Shown here: piece after piece, positions 1 to 15,279 of the stretch
Layout of the letters: the number at the start of each line of letters is the position of its first letter
Numbering within the stretch: the first letter of the stretch is position 1
Origin: a virus
Taxonomy: Duplodnaviria > Heunggongvirae > Uroviricota > Caudoviricetes
IMG/VR virus record: IMGVR_UViG_2617270978_000023
Reading direction: 5' to 3' (one strand)
DNA: 27,371 nucleotides
The notes under the pieces: model-generated
What the model was told of the DNA's origin: nothing
What the model saw: only the letters and a program-made list of their open reading frames with translations
Databases searched by the model: none
Position numbers and translations under genes: made by a program

Positions 1-2397
1 ATGAAGGCTGAAATCAGCCGTAGAAGTCTGATGAAAACCTCCGCACTTGGCAGTCTTGCGCTGGCAAGCAGTGCTTTCACTCTGCCATTTTCCCAAATGG
101 TCCGGGCGGCAGAGGCTCCGGTAGAAGAGAAAGCGGTCTGGAGTTCCTGCACCGTTAACTGCGGGAGCCGCTGTCTGTTACGTTTGCATGTGAAAGATGA
201 CACCGTGTACTGGGTGGAGTCTGATACGACAGGTGACGACGTCTACGGTAATCATCAGGTTCGAGCGTGTTTACGCGGGCGCTCTATCCGCCGACGGATG
301 AATCATCCTGATAGGTTGAAATATCCCATGAAGCGCGTCGGCAAGCGCGGTGAAGGTAAATTTGAACGGATAAGTTGGGACGAAGCCCTGGATACCATCA
401 GTGATAATCTTCGGCGGATCCTGAAAGATTACGGCAATGAGGCTGTACATGTCCTGTACGGAACAGGCGTAGATGGCGGAAACATCACCAACTCAAACGT
501 CCCGTACCGTCTGATGAACTCTTGCGGTGGTTTTCTCAGTCGCTATGGCAGCTACAGTACCGCACAGATCAGTGCCGCAATGAGTTATATGTTCGGTGCC
601 AATGATGGCAACAGCCCGGATGATATCGCCAATACGAAACTGGTCGTTATGTTCGGAAATAACCCGGCAGAAACGCGGATGAGCGGCGGTGGTGTCACTT
701 ACTACGTCGAGCAAGCCCGCGAACGTTCAAACGCACGCATGATCGTCATCGATCCACGTTATAACGACACTGCTGCCGGGCGTGAAGATGAATGGCTGCC
801 CATTCGCCCTGGCACCGATGGCGCACTGGCCTGTGCGATTGCCTGGGTACTGATTACTGAAAACATGGTCGATCAGCCATTTCTCGACAAATATTGTGTT
901 GGTTACGATGAAAAAACGCTGCCCGCCAACGCACCACGTAACGCGCATTATAAAGCCTATATTCTGGGCGAAGGGCCTGACGGCATAGCTAAAACGCCGG
1001 AATGGGCAGCAAAAATCACCAGCATCCCGGCAGAAAAAATTATCCAGTTGGCACGAGAGATCGGTTCAGCAAAACCTGCTTATATTTGTCAGGGTTGGGG
1101 GCCACAACGACATTCCAACGGCGAGCAAACATCCCGCGCTATTGCCATGCTTTCCGTTCTCACCGGCAACGTCGGCATAAACGGCGGCAACTCAGGCGTA
1201 CGCGAAGGTAGCTGGGATCTGGGGGTAGAATGGTTCCCGATGCTCGAGAATCCTGTTAAAACGCAGATTTCCGTCTTTACATGGACAGATGCCATCGACC
1301 ATGGTACGGAAATGACCGCGACCCGTGATGGTGTTCGTGGAAAAGAAAAACTGGATGTCCCCATCAAGTTTTTATGGTGCTACGCCAGTAACACATTGAT
1401 CAATCAACATGGCGACATCAATCACACCCATGAGGTGCTTCAGGATGACAGCAAGTGCGAGATGATTGTTGGCATTGACCACTTCATGACGGCCTCGGCT
1501 AAGTATTGCGATATCCTGTTGCCCGACCTGATGCCAACAGAGCAAGAAGACCTTATCTCTCATGAATCTGCAGGGAATATGGGCTATGTGATCCTCGCCC
1601 AACCCGCAACCTCAGCAAAATTTGAACGCAAACCCATCTACTGGATGCTGAGTGAAGTCGCCAAACGCTTAGGACCAGACGTTTATCAAACCTTTACTGA
1701 AGGTCGCAGTCAGCATGAATGGATCAAATATCTCCATGCGAAAACGAAGGAACGTAACCCTGAGATGCCCGACTACGAGGAGATGAAAACGACCGGGATC
1801 TTTAAGAAAAAATGCCCGGAAGAACACTACGTCGCTTTCCGCGCATTCCGTGAAGATCCACAGGCAAACCCGTTGAAAACACCTTCGGGGAAAATCGAAA
1901 TTTATTCTGAACGACTGGCGAAGATTGCAGATACCTGGGAATTGAAAAAAGATGAAATTATTCATCCCCTTCCTGCGTATACCCCAGGTTTTGATGGCTG
2001 GGACGATCCCCTGCGGAAAACCTATCCACTGCAGTTAACGGGCTTCCATTACAAAGCGCGTACCCACTCCAGCTACGGCAATATTGATGTGTTACAGCAG
2101 GCCTGCCCACAAGAGGTGTGGATCAACCCCATTGATGCTCAGGCACGCGGTATCCGTCATGGCGATACCGTGCGGGTATTTAACAATAATGGAGAAATGC
2201 TGATTGCCGCAAAAGTGACTCCGCGTATTCTGCCTGGCGTTACCGCCATCGGGCAAGGTGCGTGGCTTAAAGCGGATATGTTTGGTGACCGGGTCGATCA
2301 CGGCGGCAGTATCAATATTCTGACCTCTCACCGCCCTTCACCGCTGGCAAAGGGAAACCCGTCGCACAGCAATCTTGTCCAGATCGAAAAGGTTTAA
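1..2397 (+). CDS. ynfF: DMSO reductase family molybdopterin oxidoreductase catalytic subunit (putative selenate/DMSO reductase); probably 5'-truncated by the window edge
   Basis: 798-aa ORF with a twin-arginine signal (SRRSLMK) and the Cys cluster CTVNCGSRC typical of the N-terminal Fe-S site of DmsA-type enzymes. It is followed 10 nt downstream by a dmsB/ynfG-type start with its own RBS. The native start probably lies a few codons upstream of position 1. Confidence 0.85.
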   Translation: MKAEISRRSLMKTSALGSLALASSAFTLPFSQMVRAAEAPVEEKAVWSSCTVNCGSRCLLRLHVKDDTVYWVESDTTGDDVYGNHQVRACLRGRSIRRRMNHPDRLKYPMKRVGKRGEGKFERISWDEALDTISDNLRRILKDYGNEAVHVLYGTGVDGGNITNSNVPYRLMNSCGGFLSRYGSYSTAQISAAMSYMFGANDGNSPDDIANTKLVVMFGNNPAETRMSGGGVTYYVEQARERSNARMIVIDPRYNDTAAGREDEWLPIRPGTDGALACAIAWVLITENMVDQPFLDKYCVGYDEKTLPANAPRNAHYKAYILGEGPDGIAKTPEWAAKITSIPAEKIIQLAREIGSAKPAYICQGWGPQRHSNGEQTSRAIAMLSVLTGNVGINGGNSGVREGSWDLGVEWFPMLENPVKTQISVFTWTDAIDHGTEMTATRDGVRGKEKLDVPIKFLWCYASNTLINQHGDINHTHEVLQDDSKCEMIVGIDHFMTASAKYCDILLPDLMPTEQEDLISHESAGNMGYVILAQPATSAKFERKPIYWMLSEVAKRLGPDVYQTFTEGRSQHEWIKYLHAKTKERNPEMPDYEEMKTTGIFKKKCPEEHYVAFRAFREDPQANPLKTPSGKIEIYSERLAKIADTWELKKDEIIHPLPAYTPGFDGWDDPLRKTYPLQLTGFHYKARTHSSYGNIDVLQQACPQEVWINPIDAQARGIRHGDTVRVFNNNGEMLIAAKVTPRILPGVTAIGQGAWLKADMFGDRVDHGGSINILTSHRPSPLAKGNPSHSNLVQIEKV

Positions 2398-2407
2398 GGA
2401 GTAGCCC

Positions 2408-2521
2408 ATGACCACACAATATGGATTTTTTATCGATTCCAGCCGCTGTACTGGCTGTAAAACCTGCGAACTGGCGTGCAAAGATTTTAAAGTTGGTTAC
2501 GTATCGTTTAAAATCAATTAG
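2408..2521 (+). pseudogene. ynfG: 5' fragment of the 4Fe-4S subunit gene ynfG, truncated after codon 28 by foreign DNA; the ORF now ends after 37 codons
   Basis: RBS aaggag then ATG. The product MTTQYGFFIDSSRCTGCKTCELACKDFK matches the recalled DmsB/YnfG N-terminus, then diverges into VGYVSFKIN-stop. Only the first CxxCxxC remains, so it cannot form a functional ferredoxin-type subunit. Confidence 0.75.
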
Positions 2522-2566
2522 ATAGCCCGTCATTTCTGCGCTCACACGTCCCAACATTGAAAAACA

Positions 2567-2599
2567 TGCAAAGCTTTGTAAGCCGATGCAAAGCTTTGT
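2567..2599. promoter_or_regulatory. Two tandem copies of ATGCAAAGCTTTGT, each containing the 10-bp perfect palindrome CAAAGCTTTG; candidate operator or integrase arm-type sites
   Basis: Read directly: copies at 2567-2580 and 2586-2599, about 75-110 bp inside the junction. Confidence 0.4.
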
Positions 2600-2886
2600 G
2601 TGTCTCACTTTTGTCCCAATACCAATCCGAATCCACCCTTTGTCATCATTGAGAAATGGCAAGGAAGAAAAGGATGTTACTGCACGATTTGACAAATCCG
2701 CCAGAGCTATCGCATACTGATCGCACTGAACAAATAAGCGGTCTCCGCACCCGATAGCTTTGCGGCTTTTTTATGCCTGCAATTTGGCATAGTTACATCC
2801 GTACAAAGGTCGGGTGGAGAGGCGTAATACAACACCCGCAAGGGGAATATGCCCAGAGCTTCTTATTTGGCTCAGTTGACACCCGA

Positions 2887-2907
2887 CCGCCAGCTACTAA
2901 CTGGCGG
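2887..2907 (+). promoter_or_regulatory. Inverted repeat CCGCCAG-n7-CTGGCGG in the leader of the first antirepressor gene
   Basis: Read directly; lies 30 nt upstream of the ATG at 2937. Confidence 0.35.
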
Positions 2908-2936
2908 TTATAAACTAAACAAATAAGGAGGTCATC

Positions 2937-3221
2937 ATGACCAGTCAACTCATCCCCGTATTCAACGGTTCTATCTCAAACCAAGCAGCCCTTCTATGCA
3001 ATGCTCGCAATCTACACGCTTTCCTTGGGGTTGGTAAACGCTTTGCATCGTGGATAACAGAACGTATTGCTGAATATGGTTTCGTTGAAAATCAGGACTA
3101 TATGATTGCTTCCCAAATTCGGGAAGCAAAAGGTAGAGGCGGTCACAACCGCAAGGAATACCACCTCACCCTCGACACAGCCAAAGAGCTTGCGATGGTT
3201 GACGACTGCGTCCAATACTGA
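2937..3221 (+). CDS. AntA-domain antirepressor-like protein, short paralog (94 aa)
   Basis: Strong RBS aaggaggtcatcATG. The N-terminus MTSQLIPVFNGSIS...NARNLHAFLGVGKRFASWITERIAEYGFVENQDY fits the AntA/AntB antirepressor N-terminal signature. It shares leader and N-terminus with the downstream paralog. Confidence 0.6.
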   Translation: MTSQLIPVFNGSISNQAALLCNARNLHAFLGVGKRFASWITERIAEYGFVENQDYMIASQIREAKGRGGHNRKEYHLTLDTAKELAMVDDCVQY

Positions 3222-3421
3222 CTATACTCCGCGCCGAGGCCTCGAAAACCTCCCAAAAGCGGATTAAACCAACCCCGTCAGTGTTGGATTTTTTATGCCT
3301 GTTATTCAGTGATAGCACAGTGTGCGGTCACATCCCCGATCAATGTCGGGAGGGCGACGAATACAACACCCGCAAGGGGAATAAGTCCGCGGTATCTTTT
3401 GGGCCGTTTCGAGCCTCCCGG

Positions 3422-3438
3422 CACCACATCTTGTGGTG
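3422..3438 (+). promoter_or_regulatory. Inverted repeat CACCACA-tct-TGTGGTG in the leader of the second antirepressor gene
   Basis: Read directly; about 32 nt upstream of the ATG at 3471. Confidence 0.35.
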
Positions 3439-3470
3439 GCATTTCTCGAAAAAAGCCAAAGGAGGTCATC

Positions 3471-4100
3471 ATGACCACTCAACTCATCCCTGTGTTTGAA
3501 GGTACAATCTCAAATGAACCTACGCTTCTGGTGAACGCGCGTGATTTGCATGGATTTTTAGAGGTAGGTAAAGATTTTTCTAACTGGATACGGGCCAGGC
3601 TAAACGAGTATGGATTCGTAGAAAATTTAGACTACATTCTATTTTCGCCAAATTTGGCGAAAACTCCAGGCCGCCGCCGCAAGGATTACCACCTCACCCT
3701 CGACACAGCCAAAGAGCTTGCGATGGTTGAACGTAACGAAAAAGGTCGCCAGATCCGCCGCTACTTCATCGAGTGCGAAAAGAAACTTCGCAACATTCAG
3801 CCAGTACAAGCAGAACCACAGCCGCAATTCACAGCCGAGGAAATCATCCTCCTTTGCTACATGCAGCTCTGGATGGAAAAAGCCCAGGACCTTAGCAAGC
3901 AGCTGTACCCCATAATGAAAGAGCTGAACTCCTCATACACGAACAAGCTGTATGACATTGCGTTTGAGACTATCTACATGGTGACGAAGAACAGAGATGT
4001 GCTACTGAGAGAGGCGGCACGGCTTGACCAGTCGAGTTTCGTAGTTCAGCGGGCCAGACCAATGCTGAAAAGCCTGCGGGCAAGACAATTTGAATTCTGA
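3471..4100 (+). CDS. Phage antirepressor with N-terminal AntA/AntB domain (209 aa)
   Basis: Same RBS as the first paralog (aaggaggtcatcATG). The product starts MTTQLIPVFEGTIS, parallel to the paralog. The six-frame ORF extends to 3309, but the internal ATG with the RBS is preferred. Confidence 0.7.
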   Translation: MTTQLIPVFEGTISNEPTLLVNARDLHGFLEVGKDFSNWIRARLNEYGFVENLDYILFSPNLAKTPGRRRKDYHLTLDTAKELAMVERNEKGRQIRRYFIECEKKLRNIQPVQAEPQPQFTAEEIILLCYMQLWMEKAQDLSKQLYPIMKELNSSYTNKLYDIAFETIYMVTKNRDVLLREAARLDQSSFVVQRARPMLKSLRARQFEF

Positions 4101-4296: not shown

Positions 4297-5523
4297 ATGC
4301 CGGTAACTATAACAAAAATCAGAACTGGAGAAGATGTTTTGTCAGCAGCCATTCACCGCATTGAATGGTTGTTTGAAACATTCTCTTCTGTATGTTTATC
4401 TTTTTCTGGCGGTAAAGATTCCACTGTACTTTTCCATCTTGTAGCCGAAGTGGCCTACAGGAAGAAACGTCGTTTTTCTGTATTGTTCATTGACTGGGAA
4501 GCCCAGTATCAATGCACCATTGATCATATACAGAAGATGCGGATGATGTACCAAGATGTAACAGATACCTTTTACTGGGTTGCACTTCCCCTGACGACAG
4601 TAAATGGTGTCTCGCAGTTTCAGCCTGAGTGGATATGCTGGGAGCCCGGTGTAGAGTGGGTTCGACAGCCACCGGAAGATGCTATTACTGATATGGCGTA
4701 TTTCCCCTTTTACCGCTACGCCATGACTTTTGAAGAATTTGTCCCAGCTTTTTCTTCCTGGTTCGCAAGTAACCAATGTAGCGTGGCAATACTGACTGGA
4801 GTCCGCGCGGATGAATCTCTTAACAGATTTATGGGACTGGTTTCCCAACGAAAACTGAGATATGCAGATGATAAACCCTGGACCACGGCGTCACCTGAAG
4901 GTTTTTACTACACCATGTATCCGCTGTATGACTGGAAAACCAACGATATCTGGGTATATAACGCTAAAACCTGTGCAATCTACAATCCTCTGTATGATTT
5001 GATGTACCGTGCAGGCATTCCTCTACGTAATATGCGTGTCTGTGAGCCTTTTGGCCCGGAACAGCGTAAGGGACTATGGCTTTATCATGTTCTGGAGCCA
5101 GAAACTTGGGCACGGATGTGTGAACGAGTATCTGGTGCTGCCAGTGGGGCTCTTTATGCCAATGAAAGCGGGGCCTATTTTGCCCTGCGTAAACGGATGT
5201 CAAAACCATCCCATCATACCTGGCGCAGCTATGCGTTCTTCCTGCTGGACGTAATGCCGGAAAGAACGGCTGAACACTACCGCAACAAGATAGCAGTTTA
5301 CCTGCGCTGGTATCAGAACCGGGGATTCCCGGATGATATCCCGGATGAACAGGAAAATGATCTGGGCTGCCGGGATGTTCCCTCCTGGCGACGTATTTGT
5401 AAGACTCTCATAAAGAATGATTTCTGGTGCCGAACGCTCTCCTTCAGCCCCAACAAACCCCGGCACTATGAACGTTACCTGCAGCGTATGAATGAAAGGA
5501 GGAAGGAATGGGGAATTCTGTGA
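4297..5523 (+). CDS. ibrA: PP-loop ATPase / PAPS-reductase-like (DndC-like) protein, IbrA-like (408 aa)
   Basis: PP-loop motif SFSGGKDS near the N-terminus. Length and pairing with a ParB-like gene match the recalled ibrA/ibrB pair. The start has no strong SD, so its position is uncertain. Confidence 0.65.
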   Translation: MPVTITKIRTGEDVLSAAIHRIEWLFETFSSVCLSFSGGKDSTVLFHLVAEVAYRKKRRFSVLFIDWEAQYQCTIDHIQKMRMMYQDVTDTFYWVALPLTTVNGVSQFQPEWICWEPGVEWVRQPPEDAITDMAYFPFYRYAMTFEEFVPAFSSWFASNQCSVAILTGVRADESLNRFMGLVSQRKLRYADDKPWTTASPEGFYYTMYPLYDWKTNDIWVYNAKTCAIYNPLYDLMYRAGIPLRNMRVCEPFGPEQRKGLWLYHVLEPETWARMCERVSGAASGALYANESGAYFALRKRMSKPSHHTWRSYAFFLLDVMPERTAEHYRNKIAVYLRWYQNRGFPDDIPDEQENDLGCRDVPSWRRICKTLIKNDFWCRTLSFSPNKPRHYERYLQRMNERRKEWGIL

Positions 5524-6152
5524 CACCAGAGGTGGAGGTGCTGAGCAAGATGATTCGACAGTACTTCAGTCAGGAACAATCTGAAGAGAAAACCATACAG
5601 GCCCTGAACCATCTCCGCTGCGTACTCCATGAGATCAGCCCCTTTGCTCAAGAACCAGTGGACTGTGTGCTGTGGGTAAAAGCGGATGAAATTGTCGCTA
5701 ACGATTATAATCCCAATGTCATGGCCCCAAGCGAAAAAAAATTACTGAAACAATCTCTGGAAAAAGACGGTTTTACTCAACCAATTGTTGTTTCGGAAAA
5801 AACAAGCCATTACCTGGTGGTGGATGGTTTTCATAGGCAGTTACTAGGTAGAAGAACAGTTACTGGAAAACGCCTGAAAGGCTGGCTACCAGTAACCTGT
5901 ATTAATCCAGACCGAAAGGGACAAACCTCACGTATTGCCGCGACTATCCGACATAACAGAGCCAGGGGGAAACACCAGATAACCTCAATGTCTGATATTG
6001 TCAGAGATCTTTCACGTCTTGGCTGGACTGATGAACGTATCGGAACAGAACTGGGGATGGACCAGGATGAAGTTCTGAGGTTAAAGCAGATTAGCGGGCT
6101 AACGGAGTTATTTCAGCAGGCAGATTTCAGCCCTGCATGGACTGTTACATAA
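5508..6152 (+). CDS. ibrB: ParB/sulfiredoxin-like nuclease-domain protein, IbrB-like (214 aa)
   Basis: ParB N-terminal-type motif VVDGFHRQ. The start overlaps the ibrA stop by 16 nt, with RBS aggagga upstream, suggesting translational coupling. Confidence 0.65.
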   Translation: MGNSVTPEVEVLSKMIRQYFSQEQSEEKTIQALNHLRCVLHEISPFAQEPVDCVLWVKADEIVANDYNPNVMAPSEKKLLKQSLEKDGFTQPIVVSEKTSHYLVVDGFHRQLLGRRTVTGKRLKGWLPVTCINPDRKGQTSRIAATIRHNRARGKHQITSMSDIVRDLSRLGWTDERIGTELGMDQDEVLRLKQISGLTELFQQADFSPAWTVT

Positions 6153-6240: not shown

Positions 6241-6765
6241 CTACCTCAGATCACCTAATAATATATCAAGATTATTTTGCGCATTAATGCTATTCGCCAT
6301 TACTGTTGCTGCTTCTGGCAACTTTCCAAGAGCAATAAATATATTCTTAAGGCTGATTGGAATTGATGAACCATGCGGATCGCGCCACTCACCGCAAATT
6401 CTGTGAGTTTCATCACAAAGCCTGAACGCATCCCAACCTCCATATTGACCAAAAATTATGTCCATTGACTCTATTTCTGCGGGCGATAACTCCCCCAGCT
6501 CATCAACAGAAGAAAATGTACGCCACATTTCAACCTTATGATCCGCTACATCAGATATCCATGATTCCCACGGACTGTACTCGTTTTCACTTCCATCCTT
6601 AACCAAAGAATATGTCTGCGATAAAACGGGTCCTTTGTTCATAGAGAAATAATGATCACCACTAATGGGAAAACCATACAACTCCATTGCTTTGCGGTCA
6701 GAGAGATACATCAGCTTAATGAAACGCATAGATCCGCCATGTTTTTTCAGCAAATACGCTGCCAT
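6241..6765 (-). CDS. DUF4065 / Panacea-domain-like protein (SocA/GepA-type; candidate antitoxin) (174 aa)
   Basis: The N-terminal pattern IKLMYLSDRKAMELYGFPISGDHYFSMNKGPVLSQTY resembles the recalled DUF4065 signature (LKLQKLLYY...G.P....GPV..Y). It sits 150 nt downstream of the giant ORF on the same strand. Confidence 0.45.
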   Translation of the reverse strand: MAAYLLKKHGGSMRFIKLMYLSDRKAMELYGFPISGDHYFSMNKGPVLSQTYSLVKDGSENEYSPWESWISDVADHKVEMWRTFSSVDELGELSPAEIESMDIIFGQYGGWDAFRLCDETHRICGEWRDPHGSSIPISLKNIFIALGKLPEAATVMANSINAQNNLDILLGDLR

Positions 6766-6915: not shown

Positions 6916-9900
6916 TTAATCCACTCCCACTTTTTTGTTGTACTCGCGGTTAAAGCGATCCACGGCAACCTTCATATCCCGCTCTACCGATTTCACCATC
7001 GCCGCCTGCTGCGCCAGACTGAGAGAACTGTCGGCATAAATGGCATCGCGCTGTTTGCGCAAATCCTTCAGTCTCTTCCGGGTATCCTGCATAAGCCCGT
7101 TCATCAACAATTTTCCGTTGTTCTCGTCAATGAACGCCGTTCTTTCTGCACCGGTCAGACTCTTCAGCTCTGCGTGATACTGCGCAACCTCTGTCATCCG
7201 GTCGTACATCTTCTGCTGGTCTGCATACGGCATCACCTCACCCGAAATTTTCCCCAGGAAGGGCACCTGCTGCTCCGGTATATCAATACCGTTCAGCGAT
7301 TTCACCGCCGCATCTGTGGTTTTGGAAATGAAGCGCCCTGTCCCTCCGGAGATATAGTCAATCCAGAATTTCAGCGATTCCGGTGTGATATCCACCGCGC
7401 CGGGACGATACTGGCTGCCACCTGAGAACGCATTCAGCCAGGATGCAAACGCCTTGTACGCCTCAGGCGTTGAACGTCTGCCCAGTTGGCTGTCCGGTTT
7501 CGGTGTGCCAAATGGCATGTTCTCCTGGTAAATCTGCGCCCCCATGAAGTTTTCATTCATGGCAAGGTTCGCAAACGGACGCAGAATGGTCGGCGCTGCA
7601 TTTTTCAGCAATGCCCCGGACAGTGTTTCCGACGTTTCACTGCCCACAGGACTGAATGCCCCCAGGATACCACCGACAACATTACCGGCAGCACGTGAAG
7701 CAGTCAGGTCGCCCGCTGCCACACCTTCAGCAGTATGCCCGAGCAGGAAGAAAACGTTGTACCCGTAAGGCAGAGGAATACTCCAGTACTCTCCGGCCTT
7801 GCCCCCGAACACCGATTTCATAATGACGAGGTTACGCTCTTTCACATGAGACGGCACCTTGTCATACCAGTTAACCCCGTCATCATCCTCCCCCGCAACA
7901 CTGCGGTTAAGCGAGCCAAGCAGATAACCCGCTCCCACAGCTGCAAGCGCGATTTTCTGCGGTACATTGAGATTCTTCCAGCGAAGGCGCTCCGGTAACG
8001 GCCCGTCGCCATTAAGATGTCCGAGCGTTCTCACCAGGTTTGCGGTCCCCTGAATGCTGGCGTTGGCAAACATATACAGCGAGTTCATCAGCGCTCCCTG
8101 CTCACCACGACGGTTAAAGTTCACCGTCATGTTTTTGGCAAGAGATGCCGCCTGCTGGCGTGACAAACCGGCATCACGGGCGTGTTTATAGGCAGAAAGA
8201 CGCAGAGCGTTTTCAACCGCGCCGTTGGCATCCTCGACCAGGTTCAGGAACGAATGCCATGCACCGATACTCTGGCCTTTCCATCCTCCCTTCGCCAGCG
8301 ATACAAGGCGATCCATTTCCTTCTGCTGGCCTTCAAGGTCACCCATGTTAAACCAGCCGGTTTTACCTCCATCCTCAACAAACTCTTTCCACACCTTCTG
8401 CCACTGCGCACCGTTGCCCGTGAGGGTTTTACCACGCAGACTGGCGTATACGGCAGACATGGCAGACCGGCTGTCTTTCACCACAGCCAGGGCGGATAAG
8501 TTATCCAGCACTTTCAGTTTACCGTCGCTCCTTCCCTGCTCAGCCTTCAGGTTCATCACCGCCGTCTGCACGTCACGGATGAAGTTACTGACCAGAAATT
8601 CCGGGTTATACGACGTGTTCACCGTTGCCAGGAAACGGTTAACTTTCCCCAGCGTACGGATTACGGCGTTACTGGTTTCCGGCCCCATGTTCTTCATCGC
8701 ACGCATCAGGCGCGGGTCATGGAGTTTGATGTAGTAAGTTTTGCCGTCCTTTTTGGTGGTGAAGTAGCGATCCGCCATCATTGCCATAGGCACCGGACGT
8801 TCAACAACTTCGCGACGGGTTTCGCCGGTTTCCGGATCAACACGCTCTGCAATCGCCCGCATGGTGTCCGGTTTGTCATCAGTGAATACCTGCCAGTAAT
8901 CCTTATCGGGATTATCCTGCACCAGTTTCAGGAAGGCGTTACCCACTTCGTTTTTGCGATTGCGGATCAGCGATTCGCTCAAATCCTGTATCGCCTGAGT
9001 GGAAGGAGACTGTGCGCGGGATGCACGCCCCATGGCCTGCCTGCTTTCACGTCCGCCGATGGTGAAGCCCTTACCTGTACGGGGCAGTGACACCACACCG
9101 TCAACATCCTGACCTTTCAGGGGAACGTAGTAACGGTAGGCGTTCTGCCAGGCATCCACCACACCGCTCTCTTCCAGTCCGGCCTCACGGATAAGCTCAC
9201 GGCGACGGGCCAGCATATCGTCAACAATCCCTGCCAGACGGTCATACTGTGCCTGTTTGCCACTGTTACGCACACGCTGCATGATTTCCGCCGCTTCCGC
9301 GTTGGTCATCCCCGAACCGCCGTCCGGCATTTTCGGGTTGATTTTCGCGATATGCGCGTTACGTTCCGGCGCGTGACGGGCGTAGAGGTACTCATCCAGA
9401 TCGGCCTGCGCAATTTTGTAGTCCGCCAGTAATTTAGCCAGTGGCTGAACGTAGCGCTCCTTCATCACGTTCAGGTCGTTTTCCGCCTTCCCGTGGAAGA
9501 GTTCTTCCGCCATATAAGCGTTGTTACTGTCGTCTATTTTTCCGCCAGTTTTACGGATATTCTCCTGAACAGCTTTCAGCACCTGGAATTTATCCTGCAT
9601 CTGGCGCACAAAACGCGATGCAATTGTCTCTTCCGGTGTCAGACTGCTGGTACGGGAGTAATACGGCCCCTTGCGAATATCTTCAGGATAGAGTATTTTA
9701 TCTACAGAGCCGCGATAAGAACGCTCCTCTTTGGGCAATTGGAGCCCACTGTACTGAGGGTTATCGCGGCTTAATTTCTCCTTCCGGTAAAGCGTTAATC
9801 CAGCCATTTCCATACTTTTCAGCTTTTTCCCGTTTTCCGTACCGTAAACAGATGCCACCTTGTTAATTTCCAGACGTTTATCTGTCGCCTTCATATGCAC

Positions 9901-12900
9901 TGCCGAGACGACCGGATCACCATTTTTATCCACAGCATCAAGCAGCATCACAACCGCATTTCTTTCTGTCGCGGAACGGTAAATTGCATCCGGATTGTGC
10001 ATCAGTTCCGGAAGTCTCTCGATAACATCCATTGGCACCACATGTTTCACGCCATTGGTAGCCTTCCGCACAGTGTCGCGGGAGATAACCAGCGGCAAAT
10101 CTGGTGCGCCAAGGTGGCGCAATACCGGCGGCGTACGCCCGATGTTTGCAGTCATTGCACCAGAACGTAACGACTTCATCATTCTGGCAAGGTCATCACG
10201 ATAACGCTCGCCCTCACCTTCCGGCACTTTGAACGGATCAGGCTTACCGCTACGGGAGTACTGAGACGATGCGCCAGCGCCATCCTCACGCGGCGTGTAA
10301 CCTTCCCGCACACGCTGGCCTAACGTGCGAATAGTTTCGCGAACAAGTCTGATATCGTTCAGCTCTGTCGGCTTCAGTAACCCCGTGCGACGCAGTACCC
10401 CTTTGACCAGGGCAACAACACGCTCCCACGCCGCCACAAATTTATTCGGCTGTTTCTCCGCCATATGTGCCAGAAATTCACCTGCCTGCACTTCCGGTGA
10501 TTCCTTACCATAAGACGCATCAACCTTACGCCAGGCGTCACGGATGGTGGCGTTATCACTGTCACGGGTTTTCAGTACGGTCTTAATAATCGTCTGATAT
10601 TCCGCTGGCGTGACTACATGCTCCATTGCATGGTGGATAATCTCGTGACGCAGCTTCTCGCGAACGGTCCGCCCGTCAGGAATGTTATCCGCCACCAGGA
10701 CAATTTCACGTTTATCCGGACGATAGAACGCATGCACCCTGCCGTAACCGTCGAACGATTCCCCCGCCAGCGCTTCAGCCTCTTTCTGTGACTTCACCAC
10801 GCGGACCTTCAGGTCACTGTCCTTAATGCCACTCATCACGCCACGGGCAACCGCTTCAACCTGCGGGACCGGGCTGCCTTTGGCTTCCGCACTGCGGTTA
10901 ACATCCGAAATGAGATTGCCTTCAGGTGTGCGGGTCACGCCCTTACGGGAATAAAACGCAACGCCCTTGTCCGTCTTACGGGTTTTCAGCGTACTGAACA
11001 GGTGATCGAATGCATCACGAATACCGCCATCCAGTTCCGCATTCGTCGGATAAGCCCAGGTGTTATCTGTGTTGTGCTCAGGTGCCTTACGGATATTGAC
11101 CAGATAATCATTCTCCACGCCAGCCGTACGCGCTTTATCCTGAACATAACGCTCAAAGGCACGCGCCGCCATTTCAACATCCGTTGACCAGTACGGTTTT
11201 GAGCGCACCTCATCGAGAAGCGCTGAACGACGCGGCATGTCACTGCTGTTGATCGCTTTCATCACGCCTTTAAACGCGTCGTAAACCTCCTGACGTACCG
11301 GATATTCCGCATAAACATATCTGCCGTCTTTAAATACGCGCCCGGCACGCTGTGCTTCCGTCATATAGTCGCCACCTGACGTGATCTTCCCGTCAGTGGA
11401 AACATCATAACGACCAAAATAATTATCCAGTGAATGGAACCATTCGTGGGCCAGCGCCCCCGGTCCGTTACCTTTTGTCAGGTTGATTGCCACCTCACCC
11501 GGCTCATAGTGTGCCGCCGCCTTACCCTTACCACGGGCACCAAAAGCAAGCCCAAGACGACCGTTCAGAGAAAGCGCTTTTGTCGGCACGTTCAGCACAT
11601 CAGCCAGGTCATGCAGCGAGTCATAAGCCCGGTTCAAATCAGCCTGACGACGCGGACCTTCCACATAATTACCAAACTGCACACCACGAAAACCAAACGC
11701 ATCGCTGAACTGCTTCGGTGAGACATCACCCTTGCGGCGTTCTGGCCCGGTACGATCGCGGTTGGTGGCGTTACGCTGCTCCTCACGGGAAATCTCACGC
11801 ATCTCCTTCACATGACGAACAAGCTCATCACGATGTGAATCAATGTACTTACGCGCATCACTGGCTGACTTAAAGCCACCTCTCACCCGCATTTTGTTTT
11901 TGCCGTAAGCAATAAAAATATCGCCACTGCGGGTATTCCGGTATACGTCAAAGCTGATTTTGTCATCCGGTGACGGTGCTGTTTTTTCATCACCTTTCGC
12001 CTGTGATTTTTCCTCCTGCTCTGCAAACCAGGCTTTTGCCTTTGTCAGTAATTCATCCCTGCTTTCCGAGAAAAAGAGATTGCTCCCCTTATTGTCCTTA
12101 TTGCGCAGTGAATAAAGTTTCCGTGGCGGATCGTAACGTTTCCCTCCTGCCGCCTGATACACACCGGATACCACCCGATAAGCAGAAGCCTTGTCTATCT
12201 GCGAGGGTGGCAGCGTGCGTAACAGTTGCCATGTGTCCGCGTAACGGGCGGGCATTCTGCCTTCCATCCACTCAGCAAGCCGTCCGGCAGTCACTTTTCC
12301 TTCCAGCATTCCCGCCACACTTGTGCGGATGCTCTTTACACTCTCCACCCACTTCACTGCATTGAGTTTCGTCTTCGCCGGAATATCGCTACGATACAGC
12401 GCTATCATTGCCAGGGTATCAGCATCGGCACCTTCGTTCGCCAGTTTTGCGTAGTCCGGTTTCGGGAACACTTTGCTCAGCGGCTGCGTGAAATAATCCC
12501 TGTCTTCCAGCGTTTTACCCAGTGTTTCGGCAAGCTGTGCATAACGGTGTTTTGCCGCGCCCTTAATCTCCTCGCCAAAGTCTTCAATTTTTGCACCACG
12601 CGCCTGCTGGTGAGTGCTCGGTTTATCTACCGGCACCGGCACCTCAGTATCCGGAACATCGGTTATGGTCTGGCGATTATCCCCGGTCTGTCTGCGTGCT
12701 TCTGCCTGCTGTGCCAGTTCCGGAAGGGAGTCACGAACCATACGAGGGAGTGATTCAGGATGTGGCATATCAACCCCACGCTGTTCAGGTGCAGGAAGTC
12801 CTTCACGCACTGGTGCTGTGGCGTTCTGCTCATCCGGTGACGGCAGACCACGACGAACCGGTTCGCTCTCCAGTATTTCCCCCTGGCGACCAGCGGCATT

Positions 12901-15279
12901 TTCCGGTGCCTGCGCACGTCCTTTCTGGAAACTCTGGCCCTTCACCTCACCGGTTGTGGTAAAACGACCACCACGTCCGGCCTGATTTTCATCCGGCGTA
13001 CGCGCCACTTCTCCTGGTAACGGATATCCCTGTCCGGGATGAATATCGCCGGGAGCGGGAAGGCGTGGACGCTCAGTTAACTCCTGTGCTGTCGGACCGG
13101 CATCACCTTCAGCCATCTGTGAACGTACAAGCTCCTCTGCCGTCGGCGCGTTGCCACGGGCAAGGCGGGCCTGCACTTCTGTATCATCCCCCGTGAAACC
13201 ACGGAATCGCGGGTCACGCATGAACGCGGGCTGCTCCATCGGTTCAGCATCAGCAATACGCTCTCCGTCAGCCAGGGTGTTAATGGTCTCCGTTGCCACA
13301 TCTTCAGAGAACGCAGGATTATCCATTTCAACGGCATACTGATTCTCGCCTTTCTTCACTACGGACGGTTTCAGGCCGGTGGCGCTGGCATTGCGGAAAA
13401 CGTCGCTCCCCAGAGCACTTTTTTCATCCGTGAAATAACGGTTGTCCGGACGCACCTTTTCAATGCGTTCTGCTGGTCTGGACGCACCACTCCCGTTAAT
13501 TTCAATACGAACTTCATCCGGATCGCGGAACCGCACCGTCGGGTAAATACTCCCGTCGCCATCATCCGCATTTTCCGGCTGTGGCTGTGCCTCCGGTCTG
13601 GCCTCCTGCTGAGGGCGAAGCACATCACGGATAGCCTGTAACTGCTGCTCTTCAGTATCAGTACGCCCTTCCTTCAGGCTGAGTTTTCGGTATTCCTCAA
13701 GCAGTTCAGGGCGCGGCTTCGCCTTCAGCTCATCCATCACCGCCTGTCGCTTCGCCTGTTCATCCAGTTCATTTAACAGCTGGCTGGCGGCTTCCCGGCG
13801 ATGAACGGCAGACGTGTCTCCCTCAGGTGCCATATCCGCATCAGCATACTGTTCCAGAAGTTGCTCGCGATTCATGCCCTGCATGGATTCGCGATGCTGT
13901 GCCACCGGATCAGCCGGTTCGGGTTGCGGGGCTGCTTCACCCTGCTGTACGACTTCAGCCTCACGCATGGCGGTTTCTTCTGCGGCCTGACGTTTTCCAC
14001 GATATCCGGCAACCGCACCGAACGGTGCGCCCATCGCAGCACCAAGGGCTGCACCTTCGATCGTTGCGTCAGCCACGCCCTCCCACGGTGACACATCCAT
14101 TCCGGCGGTCTCACGCAATGCCGTGTTTTCCTGATAGCGTGAATAGCCACCCTGCGCCGCATTAATCGTCCCCTGTTCCGTGGCATTTCTGACAATGCCG
14201 CTTTTAACGGTCTTCGCCGTGCCCCGCATCGCCAGATTAAACAACTGAGCATCGCCCAGTTTTGCCGCCATGGCATTCACAGCCAGCAATTCAGGATCGG
14301 TTGCCAGCTGCGCGCGCACCTCATCGGCAACACGCTCTTTTGCCAGATCCATTTTCTGGCGATCAGTAAGCTGTGCGTGCTGCGGATCTGCATCAATTGA
14401 CAAAAACGTCTGCTGAAATTTCGGGGACTTCGCCAGCTCAGAGTAATCCGCGTTAAGAACAGAGTCTGCTGCTGCCATTGCACTCTGCCCCTGTGCGCTG
14501 GCTGAGGAATGGGTGATCAGGCCTGCCTGGAATAAATCCGGCATTTTTTTATCGACAGCTTCTGCTGCCAGTGCGGTAGCTCTTTCCGGCTGCATCCCTG
14601 CCGCAATGTATTTTTTCTCCAGCCCGGCGGTCAGCACTTTTCGCAGAGTGACTTCACCCAGCTTTTTAGTCACACCGCCTGCAACCATATCCGGTACAAG
14701 CGCACCAATCAGGTTTACGCCCTTCGCCACCCAGACCGCAGAATCATCATATCCTTCAGTCATCGGTGTATTCAGCGCCCGCTGCGCCCCCGGCGACATC
14801 TTGCCAGTCAGCCATTCATCCGAGGCTTTAGCGCCGCCACTGACTGCCTTGCCTGTGACCTTCAGACCTTTACCGACAGTATCAGTAACCGCATTTTTTC
14901 CATCAGGCAGAGTGTCGATGACCTCATCCGCCCCCTTGCTGCCACCGACAAAAATATCCTGAACAGTTGCGACTCCCGGCAGCCCCATACGGCTGAACTC
15001 ATTTAAAATACGCGCTCCTGTTTTTACCGGGCTCTGAATCATCGCATCACCGAGTCCACGGGCCATTTCCCCTGCCCCCCGGACGGACTGGGCGACACCT
15101 TTCCCCATAGTTGGCAATACATCGCCCAGGCTGAACGACGTGCTGTTGTCCTTCCAGCGATTGGGATCGGAGAAAAACGCATCATAGCTGTCAGTCTCGC
15201 CCGGCTGCTGAATGTTCAGGCTGTTGCGGTTCTGGTTGCCAAATTGCGCTTCAGGGCGCTGTTCATCGGAATAAGCCAT
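6916..15279 (-). CDS. Giant 2787-aa phage protein with two HExxH zinc-peptidase-like motifs; candidate polyvalent or injected virion protein
   Basis: Uninterrupted 8.4-kb ORF. Contains HEWFH at 11434-11448 (about aa 1278) and HEIIHHAMEH at 10618-10647 (about aa 1545). The N-terminal 430 aa are Gly/Ala-rich; about aa 430-860 are Pro/Gln/Glu-rich low complexity. Antisense ORFs across it are short. Confidence 0.85.
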   Translation of the reverse strand: MAYSDEQRPEAQFGNQNRNSLNIQQPGETDSYDAFFSDPNRWKDNSTSFSLGDVLPTMGKGVAQSVRGAGEMARGLGDAMIQSPVKTGARILNEFSRMGLPGVATVQDIFVGGSKGADEVIDTLPDGKNAVTDTVGKGLKVTGKAVSGGAKASDEWLTGKMSPGAQRALNTPMTEGYDDSAVWVAKGVNLIGALVPDMVAGGVTKKLGEVTLRKVLTAGLEKKYIAAGMQPERATALAAEAVDKKMPDLFQAGLITHSSASAQGQSAMAAADSVLNADYSELAKSPKFQQTFLSIDADPQHAQLTDRQKMDLAKERVADEVRAQLATDPELLAVNAMAAKLGDAQLFNLAMRGTAKTVKSGIVRNATEQGTINAAQGGYSRYQENTALRETAGMDVSPWEGVADATIEGAALGAAMGAPFGAVAGYRGKRQAAEETAMREAEVVQQGEAAPQPEPADPVAQHRESMQGMNREQLLEQYADADMAPEGDTSAVHRREAASQLLNELDEQAKRQAVMDELKAKPRPELLEEYRKLSLKEGRTDTEEQQLQAIRDVLRPQQEARPEAQPQPENADDGDGSIYPTVRFRDPDEVRIEINGSGASRPAERIEKVRPDNRYFTDEKSALGSDVFRNASATGLKPSVVKKGENQYAVEMDNPAFSEDVATETINTLADGERIADAEPMEQPAFMRDPRFRGFTGDDTEVQARLARGNAPTAEELVRSQMAEGDAGPTAQELTERPRLPAPGDIHPGQGYPLPGEVARTPDENQAGRGGRFTTTGEVKGQSFQKGRAQAPENAAGRQGEILESEPVRRGLPSPDEQNATAPVREGLPAPEQRGVDMPHPESLPRMVRDSLPELAQQAEARRQTGDNRQTITDVPDTEVPVPVDKPSTHQQARGAKIEDFGEEIKGAAKHRYAQLAETLGKTLEDRDYFTQPLSKVFPKPDYAKLANEGADADTLAMIALYRSDIPAKTKLNAVKWVESVKSIRTSVAGMLEGKVTAGRLAEWMEGRMPARYADTWQLLRTLPPSQIDKASAYRVVSGVYQAAGGKRYDPPRKLYSLRNKDNKGSNLFFSESRDELLTKAKAWFAEQEEKSQAKGDEKTAPSPDDKISFDVYRNTRSGDIFIAYGKNKMRVRGGFKSASDARKYIDSHRDELVRHVKEMREISREEQRNATNRDRTGPERRKGDVSPKQFSDAFGFRGVQFGNYVEGPRRQADLNRAYDSLHDLADVLNVPTKALSLNGRLGLAFGARGKGKAAAHYEPGEVAINLTKGNGPGALAHEWFHSLDNYFGRYDVSTDGKITSGGDYMTEAQRAGRVFKDGRYVYAEYPVRQEVYDAFKGVMKAINSSDMPRRSALLDEVRSKPYWSTDVEMAARAFERYVQDKARTAGVENDYLVNIRKAPEHNTDNTWAYPTNAELDGGIRDAFDHLFSTLKTRKTDKGVAFYSRKGVTRTPEGNLISDVNRSAEAKGSPVPQVEAVARGVMSGIKDSDLKVRVVKSQKEAEALAGESFDGYGRVHAFYRPDKREIVLVADNIPDGRTVREKLRHEIIHHAMEHVVTPAEYQTIIKTVLKTRDSDNATIRDAWRKVDASYGKESPEVQAGEFLAHMAEKQPNKFVAAWERVVALVKGVLRRTGLLKPTELNDIRLVRETIRTLGQRVREGYTPREDGAGASSQYSRSGKPDPFKVPEGEGERYRDDLARMMKSLRSGAMTANIGRTPPVLRHLGAPDLPLVISRDTVRKATNGVKHVVPMDVIERLPELMHNPDAIYRSATERNAVVMLLDAVDKNGDPVVSAVHMKATDKRLEINKVASVYGTENGKKLKSMEMAGLTLYRKEKLSRDNPQYSGLQLPKEERSYRGSVDKILYPEDIRKGPYYSRTSSLTPEETIASRFVRQMQDKFQVLKAVQENIRKTGGKIDDSNNAYMAEELFHGKAENDLNVMKERYVQPLAKLLADYKIAQADLDEYLYARHAPERNAHIAKINPKMPDGGSGMTNAEAAEIMQRVRNSGKQAQYDRLAGIVDDMLARRRELIREAGLEESGVVDAWQNAYRYYVPLKGQDVDGVVSLPRTGKGFTIGGRESRQAMGRASRAQSPSTQAIQDLSESLIRNRKNEVGNAFLKLVQDNPDKDYWQVFTDDKPDTMRAIAERVDPETGETRREVVERPVPMAMMADRYFTTKKDGKTYYIKLHDPRLMRAMKNMGPETSNAVIRTLGKVNRFLATVNTSYNPEFLVSNFIRDVQTAVMNLKAEQGRSDGKLKVLDNLSALAVVKDSRSAMSAVYASLRGKTLTGNGAQWQKVWKEFVEDGGKTGWFNMGDLEGQQKEMDRLVSLAKGGWKGQSIGAWHSFLNLVEDANGAVENALRLSAYKHARDAGLSRQQAASLAKNMTVNFNRRGEQGALMNSLYMFANASIQGTANLVRTLGHLNGDGPLPERLRWKNLNVPQKIALAAVGAGYLLGSLNRSVAGEDDDGVNWYDKVPSHVKERNLVIMKSVFGGKAGEYWSIPLPYGYNVFFLLGHTAEGVAAGDLTASRAAGNVVGGILGAFSPVGSETSETLSGALLKNAAPTILRPFANLAMNENFMGAQIYQENMPFGTPKPDSQLGRRSTPEAYKAFASWLNAFSGGSQYRPGAVDITPESLKFWIDYISGGTGRFISKTTDAAVKSLNGIDIPEQQVPFLGKISGEVMPYADQQKMYDRMTEVAQYHAELKSLTGAERTAFIDENNGKLLMNGLMQDTRKRLKDLRKQRDAIYADSSLSLAQQAAMVKSVERDMKVAVDRFNREYNKKVGVD

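Follow-up and report, generated by a model that had tools for sequence, protein, structure and literature searches.

A 933W-like temperate phage of about 62 kb, belonging to the phiPOC-J13/75/02 Stx/PhiR5_2 group, has almost certainly integrated into ynfG here, with the seven base pairs TTTAAAG at positions 2486–2492 as the crossover core at its integrase-distal att junction. All positions are those of the window, the whole stretch of 27,371 nucleotides that was analysed, and the integrase-distal junction corresponds to attR in the lambda convention. In the mechanism that we propose, a P22-family tyrosine integrase recombined attP, which carries the core TTTAAAG, with attB within codons 26–29 of ynfG, the exchange falling inside the 7-bp identity and nothing being lost or duplicated beyond the core. 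The integrase would bind inverted half-sites at the core, together with GTCCCA repeats in both arms. ynfG is thereby split into a 28-codon 5' stub extended by nine phage codons, and a promoterless 3' part that lies beyond the window, beside the integrase gene ~62 kb away, and ynfH-dmsD would be cut off from the FNR-dependent ynfE promoter.

The chromosome gives way to phage DNA inside ynfG

The left part of the window is host DNA and is divided as follows from the phage DNA to its right:

Positions 1–2397, plus strand: ynfF, last 798 codons and stop, an intact host gene (100% identical to ynfF of E. coli H8, 0 amino-acid differences)
Positions 2408–2521, plus strand: chimeric ORF of 37 codons, made up of 28 native ynfG codons (2408–2491) and nine phage codons, then TAG (from the sequence and the ORF list)
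Positions 2493–27371, no strand assigned: integrase-distal part of a 933W-like lambdoid prophage (Sepvirinae, phiPOC-J13/PhiR5_2-like), continuing past the window (from alignment and Pfam)

As a reference we used E. coli H8, whose ynfE-ynfF-ynfG-ynfH-dmsD locus carries no insertion. Compared base by base, window positions 1–2492 matched the intact ynfF-ynfG of this strain with 0 mismatches (100% identity), and identity across 2493–2600 was only 28%, as for random sequence. Codon 28 of ynfG is the aaa at 2489–2491, and nucleotide identity runs one base longer, to G2492. Megablast of the segment 2200–2800 against 5,426 complete E. coli genomes gave the same edge: its matches broke off exactly at window position 2492 in more than 5,200 genomes, and the whole window-side junction was present in 82. 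Because 2,492 nt of perfect identity are followed by unrelated sequence, and because the breakpoint recurs in dozens of independent genomes, the junction is not due to chance.

The chimeric ORF starts with the ATG at 2408, ends with the stop codon at 2519–2521 and encodes MTTQYGFFIDSSRCTGCKTCELACKDFK followed by VGYVSFKIN. A sequence-only reading of the window had held that the ynfG frame is native up to codon 28 and then meets nine foreign codons and a stop, and that an element boundary lies at about 2492 within a protein-coding gene rather than a tRNA, with all DNA to the right being phage-like. Direct reading, the ORF list and the H8 comparison confirmed the first of these points. The boundary was likewise upheld, as identity to H8 stops at 2492 and a tRNA scan of the whole window found none; an intact ynfG running on colinearly beyond 2492 had been named as the contrary case, and H8 ynfG diverges from 2493. 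To the right of the boundary, the Escherichia phage PhiR5_2 covers 92% of the DNA, with 96% identity. We recommend annotating the 37-codon ORF as a 5' fragment of ynfG at a prophage junction.

A 7-bp core is common to the four att sites

The attP site was first reconstructed from the two junctions, and was afterwards located in uninterrupted form in IMG/VR by an exact-pattern scan. With the core in the middle, the four sites read:

attB, intact ynfG of H8 (locus L003): GCAAAGAT-TTTAAAG-ATCTTGGC
Window junction: GCAAAGAT-TTTAAAG-TTGGTTAC
Integrase-side junction, lysogen SW071611 (locus L002): GCAACAAC-TTTAAAG-ATCTTGGC
attP, unrecombined, IMG/VR contig (locus L010): GCAACAAC-TTTAAAG-TTGGTTAC

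Within the window, the core region comprises:

Positions 2479–2485, plus strand: CAAAGAT, host half of the core region (read from the sequences)
Positions 2481–2485, plus strand: AAGAT, left arm of the attB inverted repeat AAGAT-TTTAAAG-ATCTT, a candidate core-type integrase half-site (putative binding)
Positions 2486–2492, no strand assigned: TTTAAAG, common core or overlap, the only stretch common to attB, attP and both junctions

Comparison of the four sites revealed that the flanks of TTTAAAG are unrelated and that the core alone is shared. The BLAST edges concur, since identity to ynfG stops at 2492 and, on the integrase side, resumes at the first T of the core. Alignment to an uninterrupted ynfF-ynfG locus, which had been suggested earlier as a way to find a duplicated core, thus yielded this 7-bp sequence. 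Judged from the four sites, strand exchange took place within TTTAAAG, in codons 26–29 of ynfG, with cleavage inside the 7 bp or at their edges. In attB the core is bounded by the perfect inverted repeat AAGAT/ATCTT; by analogy with lambda, a 7-bp overlap would be expected to sit between two core-type half-sites in this way. In attP, CAACTTTAAAGTTG forms a perfect palindrome.

The 78 nt ahead of the core and the 540-nt 3' fragment, core included, add up to the 618 nt of intact ynfG, so the exchange was conservative. Together, both junctions restore ynfG exactly, with no target-site duplication or deletion, and the recombination, being conservative, should therefore be reversible by excision.

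One uninterrupted attP was recovered by the exact-pattern scan, in IMG/VR contig IMGVR_UViG_2579778634_000010 (L010), and none was found in the phage collection, where the matching records are all linearised at att. In L010 the integrase gene is separated from the core by 52 nt, and the core runs directly into an arm that is 99.85% identical to window 2493–3841, which implies that the phage DNA of that sample was excised or circular, or else lay in tandem. The contig is isolate-derived, and its positions 11043–13614 join the integrase and antirepressor ends via the unrecombined attP.

We also considered the paralogue dmsB as a secondary site. This appears unlikely, as its equivalent position reads TACAAAG-ATTTGAC, with two mismatches in the overlap. 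Across the 5,426 complete E. coli genomes, matches to the integrase-side junction adjoin ynfG only.

In relatives, the integrase gene lies at the opposite junction

Pfam searches of the major ORFs of the window found no integrase domain in any of them, in agreement with the earlier claim that no integrase lies within 25 kb. In SW071611, the closest lysogen, the stop codon of a 387-aa integrase gene is located 52 nt from the 3' 540 nt of ynfG, and this 3' part is followed by ynfH and dmsD; by coordinates, the prophage spans ~61.9 kb (about 62 kb) between its two cores. Both the 3' part of ynfG and an integrase, which the sequence-only reading had proposed to look for at the other end of the element, are thus present in this relative, which supports the earlier claim that the window shows the integrase-distal end. 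A gene placed by the other junction, ~62 kb away as in relatives, would explain why the window holds no integrase.

The integrase of the relatives is a tyrosine recombinase (PF00589, E = 1.5e-45, Pfam). This 387-aa protein is encoded 52 nt from the core in SW071611, L010, phiPOC-J13 and PhiR5_2, its position in the window's own genome being beyond the window. The SW071611 protein is identical to that of phiPOC-J13 at 386 of 387 residues, and to that of PhiR5_2 at 387 of 387 in an ungapped comparison (99.7% by tblastn). The integrase-side junction was present in 89 of the 5,426 complete E. coli genomes. From the arrangement in relatives, the integrase of the source strain would be expected ~35 kb past the right end of the window.

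The window might instead show a decayed remnant that has lost its integrase end, the disruption of ynfG being fixed and irreversible in the source strain. The visible 25 kb contain no integrase, the other end lies beyond the window, and decay does occur at this locus, several prophage and ynf genes of lysogen 2014C-3338 being annotated as frameshifted or partial. We nevertheless consider a remnant, which the sequence-only reading had kept as its alternative, unlikely: the visible 25 kb are colinear with complete, inducible phages (PhiR5_2, 92% coverage), very long ORFs (2,787, 567, 422 and 421 aa) are intact, and SW071611, the closest lysogen, carries a full 62-kb prophage with integrase. The absence of an integrase from the window is uninformative, because in this phage type the gene is expected ~35 kb past the window end. 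For the favoured reading, a temperate prophage of full length whose other junction lies beyond the window, completeness is suggested by its relatives.

P22-type arms surround a different core

The phage arm next to the core contains two candidate arm-type sites and, between them, a pair of repeats:

Positions 2548–2553, plus strand: GTCCCA, candidate arm-type integrase site, first in this arm (position kept in ST104 attP; putative binding)
Positions 2564–2603, plus strand: two copies of ATGCAAAGCTTTGT (2566–2579 and 2586–2599), 20 bp apart (repeat search)
Positions 2613–2618, plus strand: GTCCCA, candidate arm-type integrase site, second in this arm (position kept in ST104 attP; putative binding)

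Around the attP core there are four same-strand copies of GTCCCA, two at the 3' end of the integrase gene and two in the window arm, and all four positions are conserved in attP of the P22-like phage ST104. Since GTCCCA is not enriched across the window (8 found versus 12.7 expected), the reading of these motifs as candidate arm sites draws on their position and on their conservation with the P22-like attP.

The ATGCAAAGCTTTGT pair can fold into a 17-bp hairpin that is followed by CUCACUUUUG, a U-rich tract, and is thus terminator-like (-22.7 kcal/mol, z = -4.6 for folding versus shuffles). This hairpin is conserved in ST104 attP (locus L007, 2495–2535, alongside window 2564–2603). In attP it is found on the strand along which an integrase transcript would extend, and in the prophage form it is displaced to the end opposite the integrase, directly downstream of ynfF-ynfG'. 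In lambda, sib/tI holds a comparable position relative to the integrase gene. Speculatively, the pair may bind accessory proteins and/or, in the phage form, end transcription of the integrase gene in the manner of sib/tI.

Integrases of the P22/ST104 type, whose target is the thrW tRNA, are 70–72% identical to the one described here, as is the integrase of phage phi458. The attP of ST104 shares the pair of GTCCCA motifs that lie within the 3' end of the integrase gene, and its other arm likewise contains GTCCCA, two ATGCAAAG(C)TTTG repeats 20 bp apart and a further GTCCCA, this second arm being nearly identical to window 2537–2620. Both ST104 attP and the window-type attP have a heterobivalent lambda-type architecture. 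In contrast, the ~100 bp around the core differ, with a tRNA-Thr 3' segment in ST104 and CAACTTTAAAGTTGG here. [quoted passage not shown] The thrW target of the P22 Int family is accordingly not the one used here, as the core lies in ynfG and the tRNA-derived segment of ST104 is absent.

Divergence of the integrase from ST104 Int is greatest at residues 91–150 (43–57% identity) and 271–300 (53%), and its N-terminal 90 residues are ~77% identical. This pattern suggests that the module kept arm binding and altered core recognition, the diverging residues falling where the core is presumably bound. Its arms being the same and its protein 70% identical, the module probably works like P22 Int, but is not of the same specificity class.

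In lambda, a 7-bp overlap with inverted core half-sites, arm repeats and an integrase beside one junction only accompany reversible conservative recombination, and 933W integrates in wrbA, interrupting a protein-coding gene. The ynfG module, with its candidate half-sites and arm sites and, in relatives, an integrase beside one junction, is alike in layout and, for 933W, in the interruption of a gene; its core sequence and its target are different.

Predicted consequences for the host

YnfG has 16 cluster cysteines in four groups, and the stub retains the first group only (Cys14, 17, 20 and 24), 12 of the 16 Fe-S cysteines being lost. At the integrase-side junction, the frame leading into the 3' part has an in-frame TAG and then reads ..QVVSNNFKDLG, with no cysteine motif; we therefore rejected the possibility that the phage restores the 5' end of ynfG there. 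Neither a ribosome-binding site nor a substitute N-terminus for ynfG' was seen at this junction. Because 12 of the 16 cysteines are removed and the integrase side offers no replacement N-terminus, the Fe-S subunit YnfG is inactivated, as had been predicted for this 4Fe-4S subunit from the window.

ynfEFGH-dmsD forms one FNR-activated operon (PMC3688515), in which YnfG is the proposed electron-transfer subunit between YnfE and YnfH (PMC5203670). Because about 62 kb would be inserted in this one FNR-activated operon, ynfH-dmsD would be uncoupled from the ynfE promoter, and a polar effect on ynfH-dmsD, which integrase read-through or an internal promoter might offset, can reasonably be expected. 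The lysogen would lack YnfG, and hence a functional YnfEFGH selenate reductase.

Insertion could conceivably do more than inactivate a gene. We regard it as very unlikely that lysogeny rewires DmsD expression under prophage control, or that it acts as a reversible switch on anaerobic S-oxide/selenate respiration. Prophage control of DmsD, the chaperone of DMSO reductase, could come from the move of ynfH-dmsD to directly behind the integrase gene and of the hairpin to a place after ynfF-ynfG'; if true, precise excision would restore the operon in Stx-phage lysogens. As a full account of the locus, the insertion would be adaptive, either a reversible regulatory switch ('active lysogeny') that restores ynfG or a source of integrase read-through driving ynfH-dmsD. 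The conservative recombination, by which excision would restore ynfG precisely, is consistent with this account, as is the arrangement in SW071611, where the integrase gene points the same way as ynfG'-ynfH-dmsD and precedes it by only 52 nt, the terminator-like hairpin having moved to the other end; DmsD is moreover required for DmsABC maturation (PMC12096835). However, the insertion occurs in only ~1.5% of E. coli genomes, a pattern resembling ordinary sporadic lysogeny, repression of the integrase is the rule in lysogens, and ynfG' has no visible ribosome-binding site or replacement N-terminus, all of which make an adaptive insertion highly improbable compared with the site-specific integration of a temperate phage.

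In lysogen 2014C-3338 (L001 15288–20198, NZ_CP027452.1), the two genes that precede the disrupted ynfG, ynfE and ynfF, are both annotated as frameshifted pseudogenes. These frameshifts could be sequencing errors or, alternatively, decay of an operon that has lost its use.

ynfG is an established integration site

[quoted passage not shown] Insertions in ynfG are also on record for the S. sonnei 75/02 Stx phage (PMC5447701), the Stx1a prophage of E. coli RM10410 (PMC10562709) and a clinical STEC isolate (CIDM; bioRxiv 10.1101/2024.05.07.593058). The junctions occur in ~1.5% of complete E. coli genomes (82–89 of 5,426). A junction that is not site-specific, produced in ynfG by illegitimate or homologous recombination, IS-mediated rearrangement or an assembly chimera, might be suspected because the window has a single junction and its boundary lacks both a tRNA and a long direct repeat, but is vanishingly improbable given the base-exact same breakpoint in 82–89 independent complete genomes and in Shigella phage records, the existence of a matching attP, a reciprocal junction that restores ynfG exactly, the experimental reproduction of ynfG integration with phiPOC-J13, and the absence of any detected IS or transposase in the window.

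The prophage of the window is a new instance of a known phage–site pair, differing mainly in its cargo genes, and ynfG, as the established integration site of phiPOC-J13-type Stx phages, is already in use for Stx-prophage typing. The present analysis adds a base-exact site, with the core TTTAAAG in codons 26–29 and the attB half-sites AAGAT/ATCTT; a P22-type integrase module that appears to have retained its arms while its core specificity shifted from a tRNA to a protein-coding gene; and a physiological prediction for lysogens, namely loss of YnfG and possible reduction of DmsD.

phiPOC-J13 (a Shigella phage; Diegovirus POCJ13, Sepvirinae), integrated in S1742/ynfG, thus shares its target gene with the window prophage, and its att arm is the same: the end of its record is identical to window 2493–2612 and ends exactly at 2493. 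It carries stx1a, the corresponding region of the window prophage being beyond the window. The accessory regions differ, with ibrA/ibrB-like genes, a SocA/Panacea gene and a YadA-anchor adhesin in the window versus DUF551, Ea22-like and DUF4752 genes in phiPOC-J13, which lacks the IbrA/IbrB pair. The 75/02 Stx record ends at the same core and arm as the window prophage; both this phage and the RM10410 prophage are Stx1-converting and have other cargo genes. PhiR5_2 (PV340546.1) is the closest phage record. It shares IbrA/IbrB and Lom, and its 61.5 kb run from an integrase end to an antirepressor end; it differs by ~4% divergence and some missing segments. We found no publication on the PhiR5_2 integration site.

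Gene content of the prophage

The best genome match was a prophage at the same chromosomal place in another E. coli; as it covers 96% of the query at 96% identity, it belongs to a different strain. Among phage records, the phage part of the window aligns with PhiR5_2 at 92% coverage and 96.4% identity, and with phiPOC-J13 and 75/02 Stx at ~73% coverage and ~91% identity; many Stx1/Stx2-converting 933W-like phages also align. Over the late and accessory region, colinearity with reference members of the Sepvirinae reaches 72–92% coverage at 90–96% identity. No stx is annotated in PhiR5_2 or in the SW071611 prophage, and in the window prophage the Q-stx-lysis region would fall beyond the right end. 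The main genes assigned in the window are:

Positions 2937–3221, plus strand: short AntA-domain gene, 94 aa, the first phage gene past the junction (Pfam AntA, E = 1.8e-25)
Positions 3471–4100, plus strand: antirepressor gene with AntA and P22_AR_C domains, 209 aa (Pfam)
Positions 4297–5523 and 5508–6152, plus strand: IbrA/IbrB pair (PhiR5_2 annotation), overlapping genes (alignment, Pfam)
Positions 6241–6765, minus strand: SocA/Panacea-domain (antitoxin-type) gene (Pfam)
Positions 6916–15279, minus strand: large polyvalent protein of 2,787 aa with LPD38, LPD5, LPD1 and MuF_C, intact (Pfam)
Positions 18913–19650: Lom/Ail outer-membrane protein (Pfam)
Positions 23949–25613, minus strand: cargo-like (moron) region between tail fiber genes
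Positions 23949–24419, minus strand: ORF of 156 aa with no family match
Positions 24510–25613, minus strand: YadA-anchor trimeric autotransporter adhesin, 367 aa

Pfam further assigned a tail tip fiber protein and a DUF4376 protein, and detected no IS, transposase or recombinase in the window. The IbrA-like protein is a PAPS-reductase/DUF3440 protein that gave weak PAPS-reductase/BrxP/DndC-like hits in PADLOC and NCBIfam scans of the accessory ORFs, and the IbrB-like protein (214 aa) gave only a weak ParB/Noc-like match. The SocA/Panacea gene lies directly downstream of the gene for the 2,787-aa polyvalent protein and is co-oriented with it; a search for a partner toxin gave no candidate ORF of at least 30 aa adjoining the SocA/Panacea gene. 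Large polyvalent proteins of this kind are typical of 933W-like phages, and one other ynfG lysogen has the gene annotated with a frameshift.

The short AntA gene is the same as gp79 of phiPOC-J13, which is annotated with 95 aa. The T-runs at ~2765–2775 and 3288–3296 were considered as intrinsic terminators shielding the antirepressor genes and rejected, as they fold no better than shuffles (z = -1.2 and -0.5). Two full-length matches to RF02221 (sRNA-Xcc1) were found in this region, at 2808–2896 and 3345–3430, both on the plus strand, scoring 69.1 and 73.4 bits where the Rfam gathering score is 53. Each copy precedes an AntA-domain gene, ~40 nt ahead of its ribosome-binding site, and both fall within a tandem duplication of ~534 nt, their outer stems differing by compensatory changes. 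A paper on APSE phages reports the RF02221 family upstream of an ORF6N-domain gene. This arrangement suggests that the RF02221 element serves antirepressor-like genes as a cis-acting 5' leader and is not only a trans-acting sRNA.
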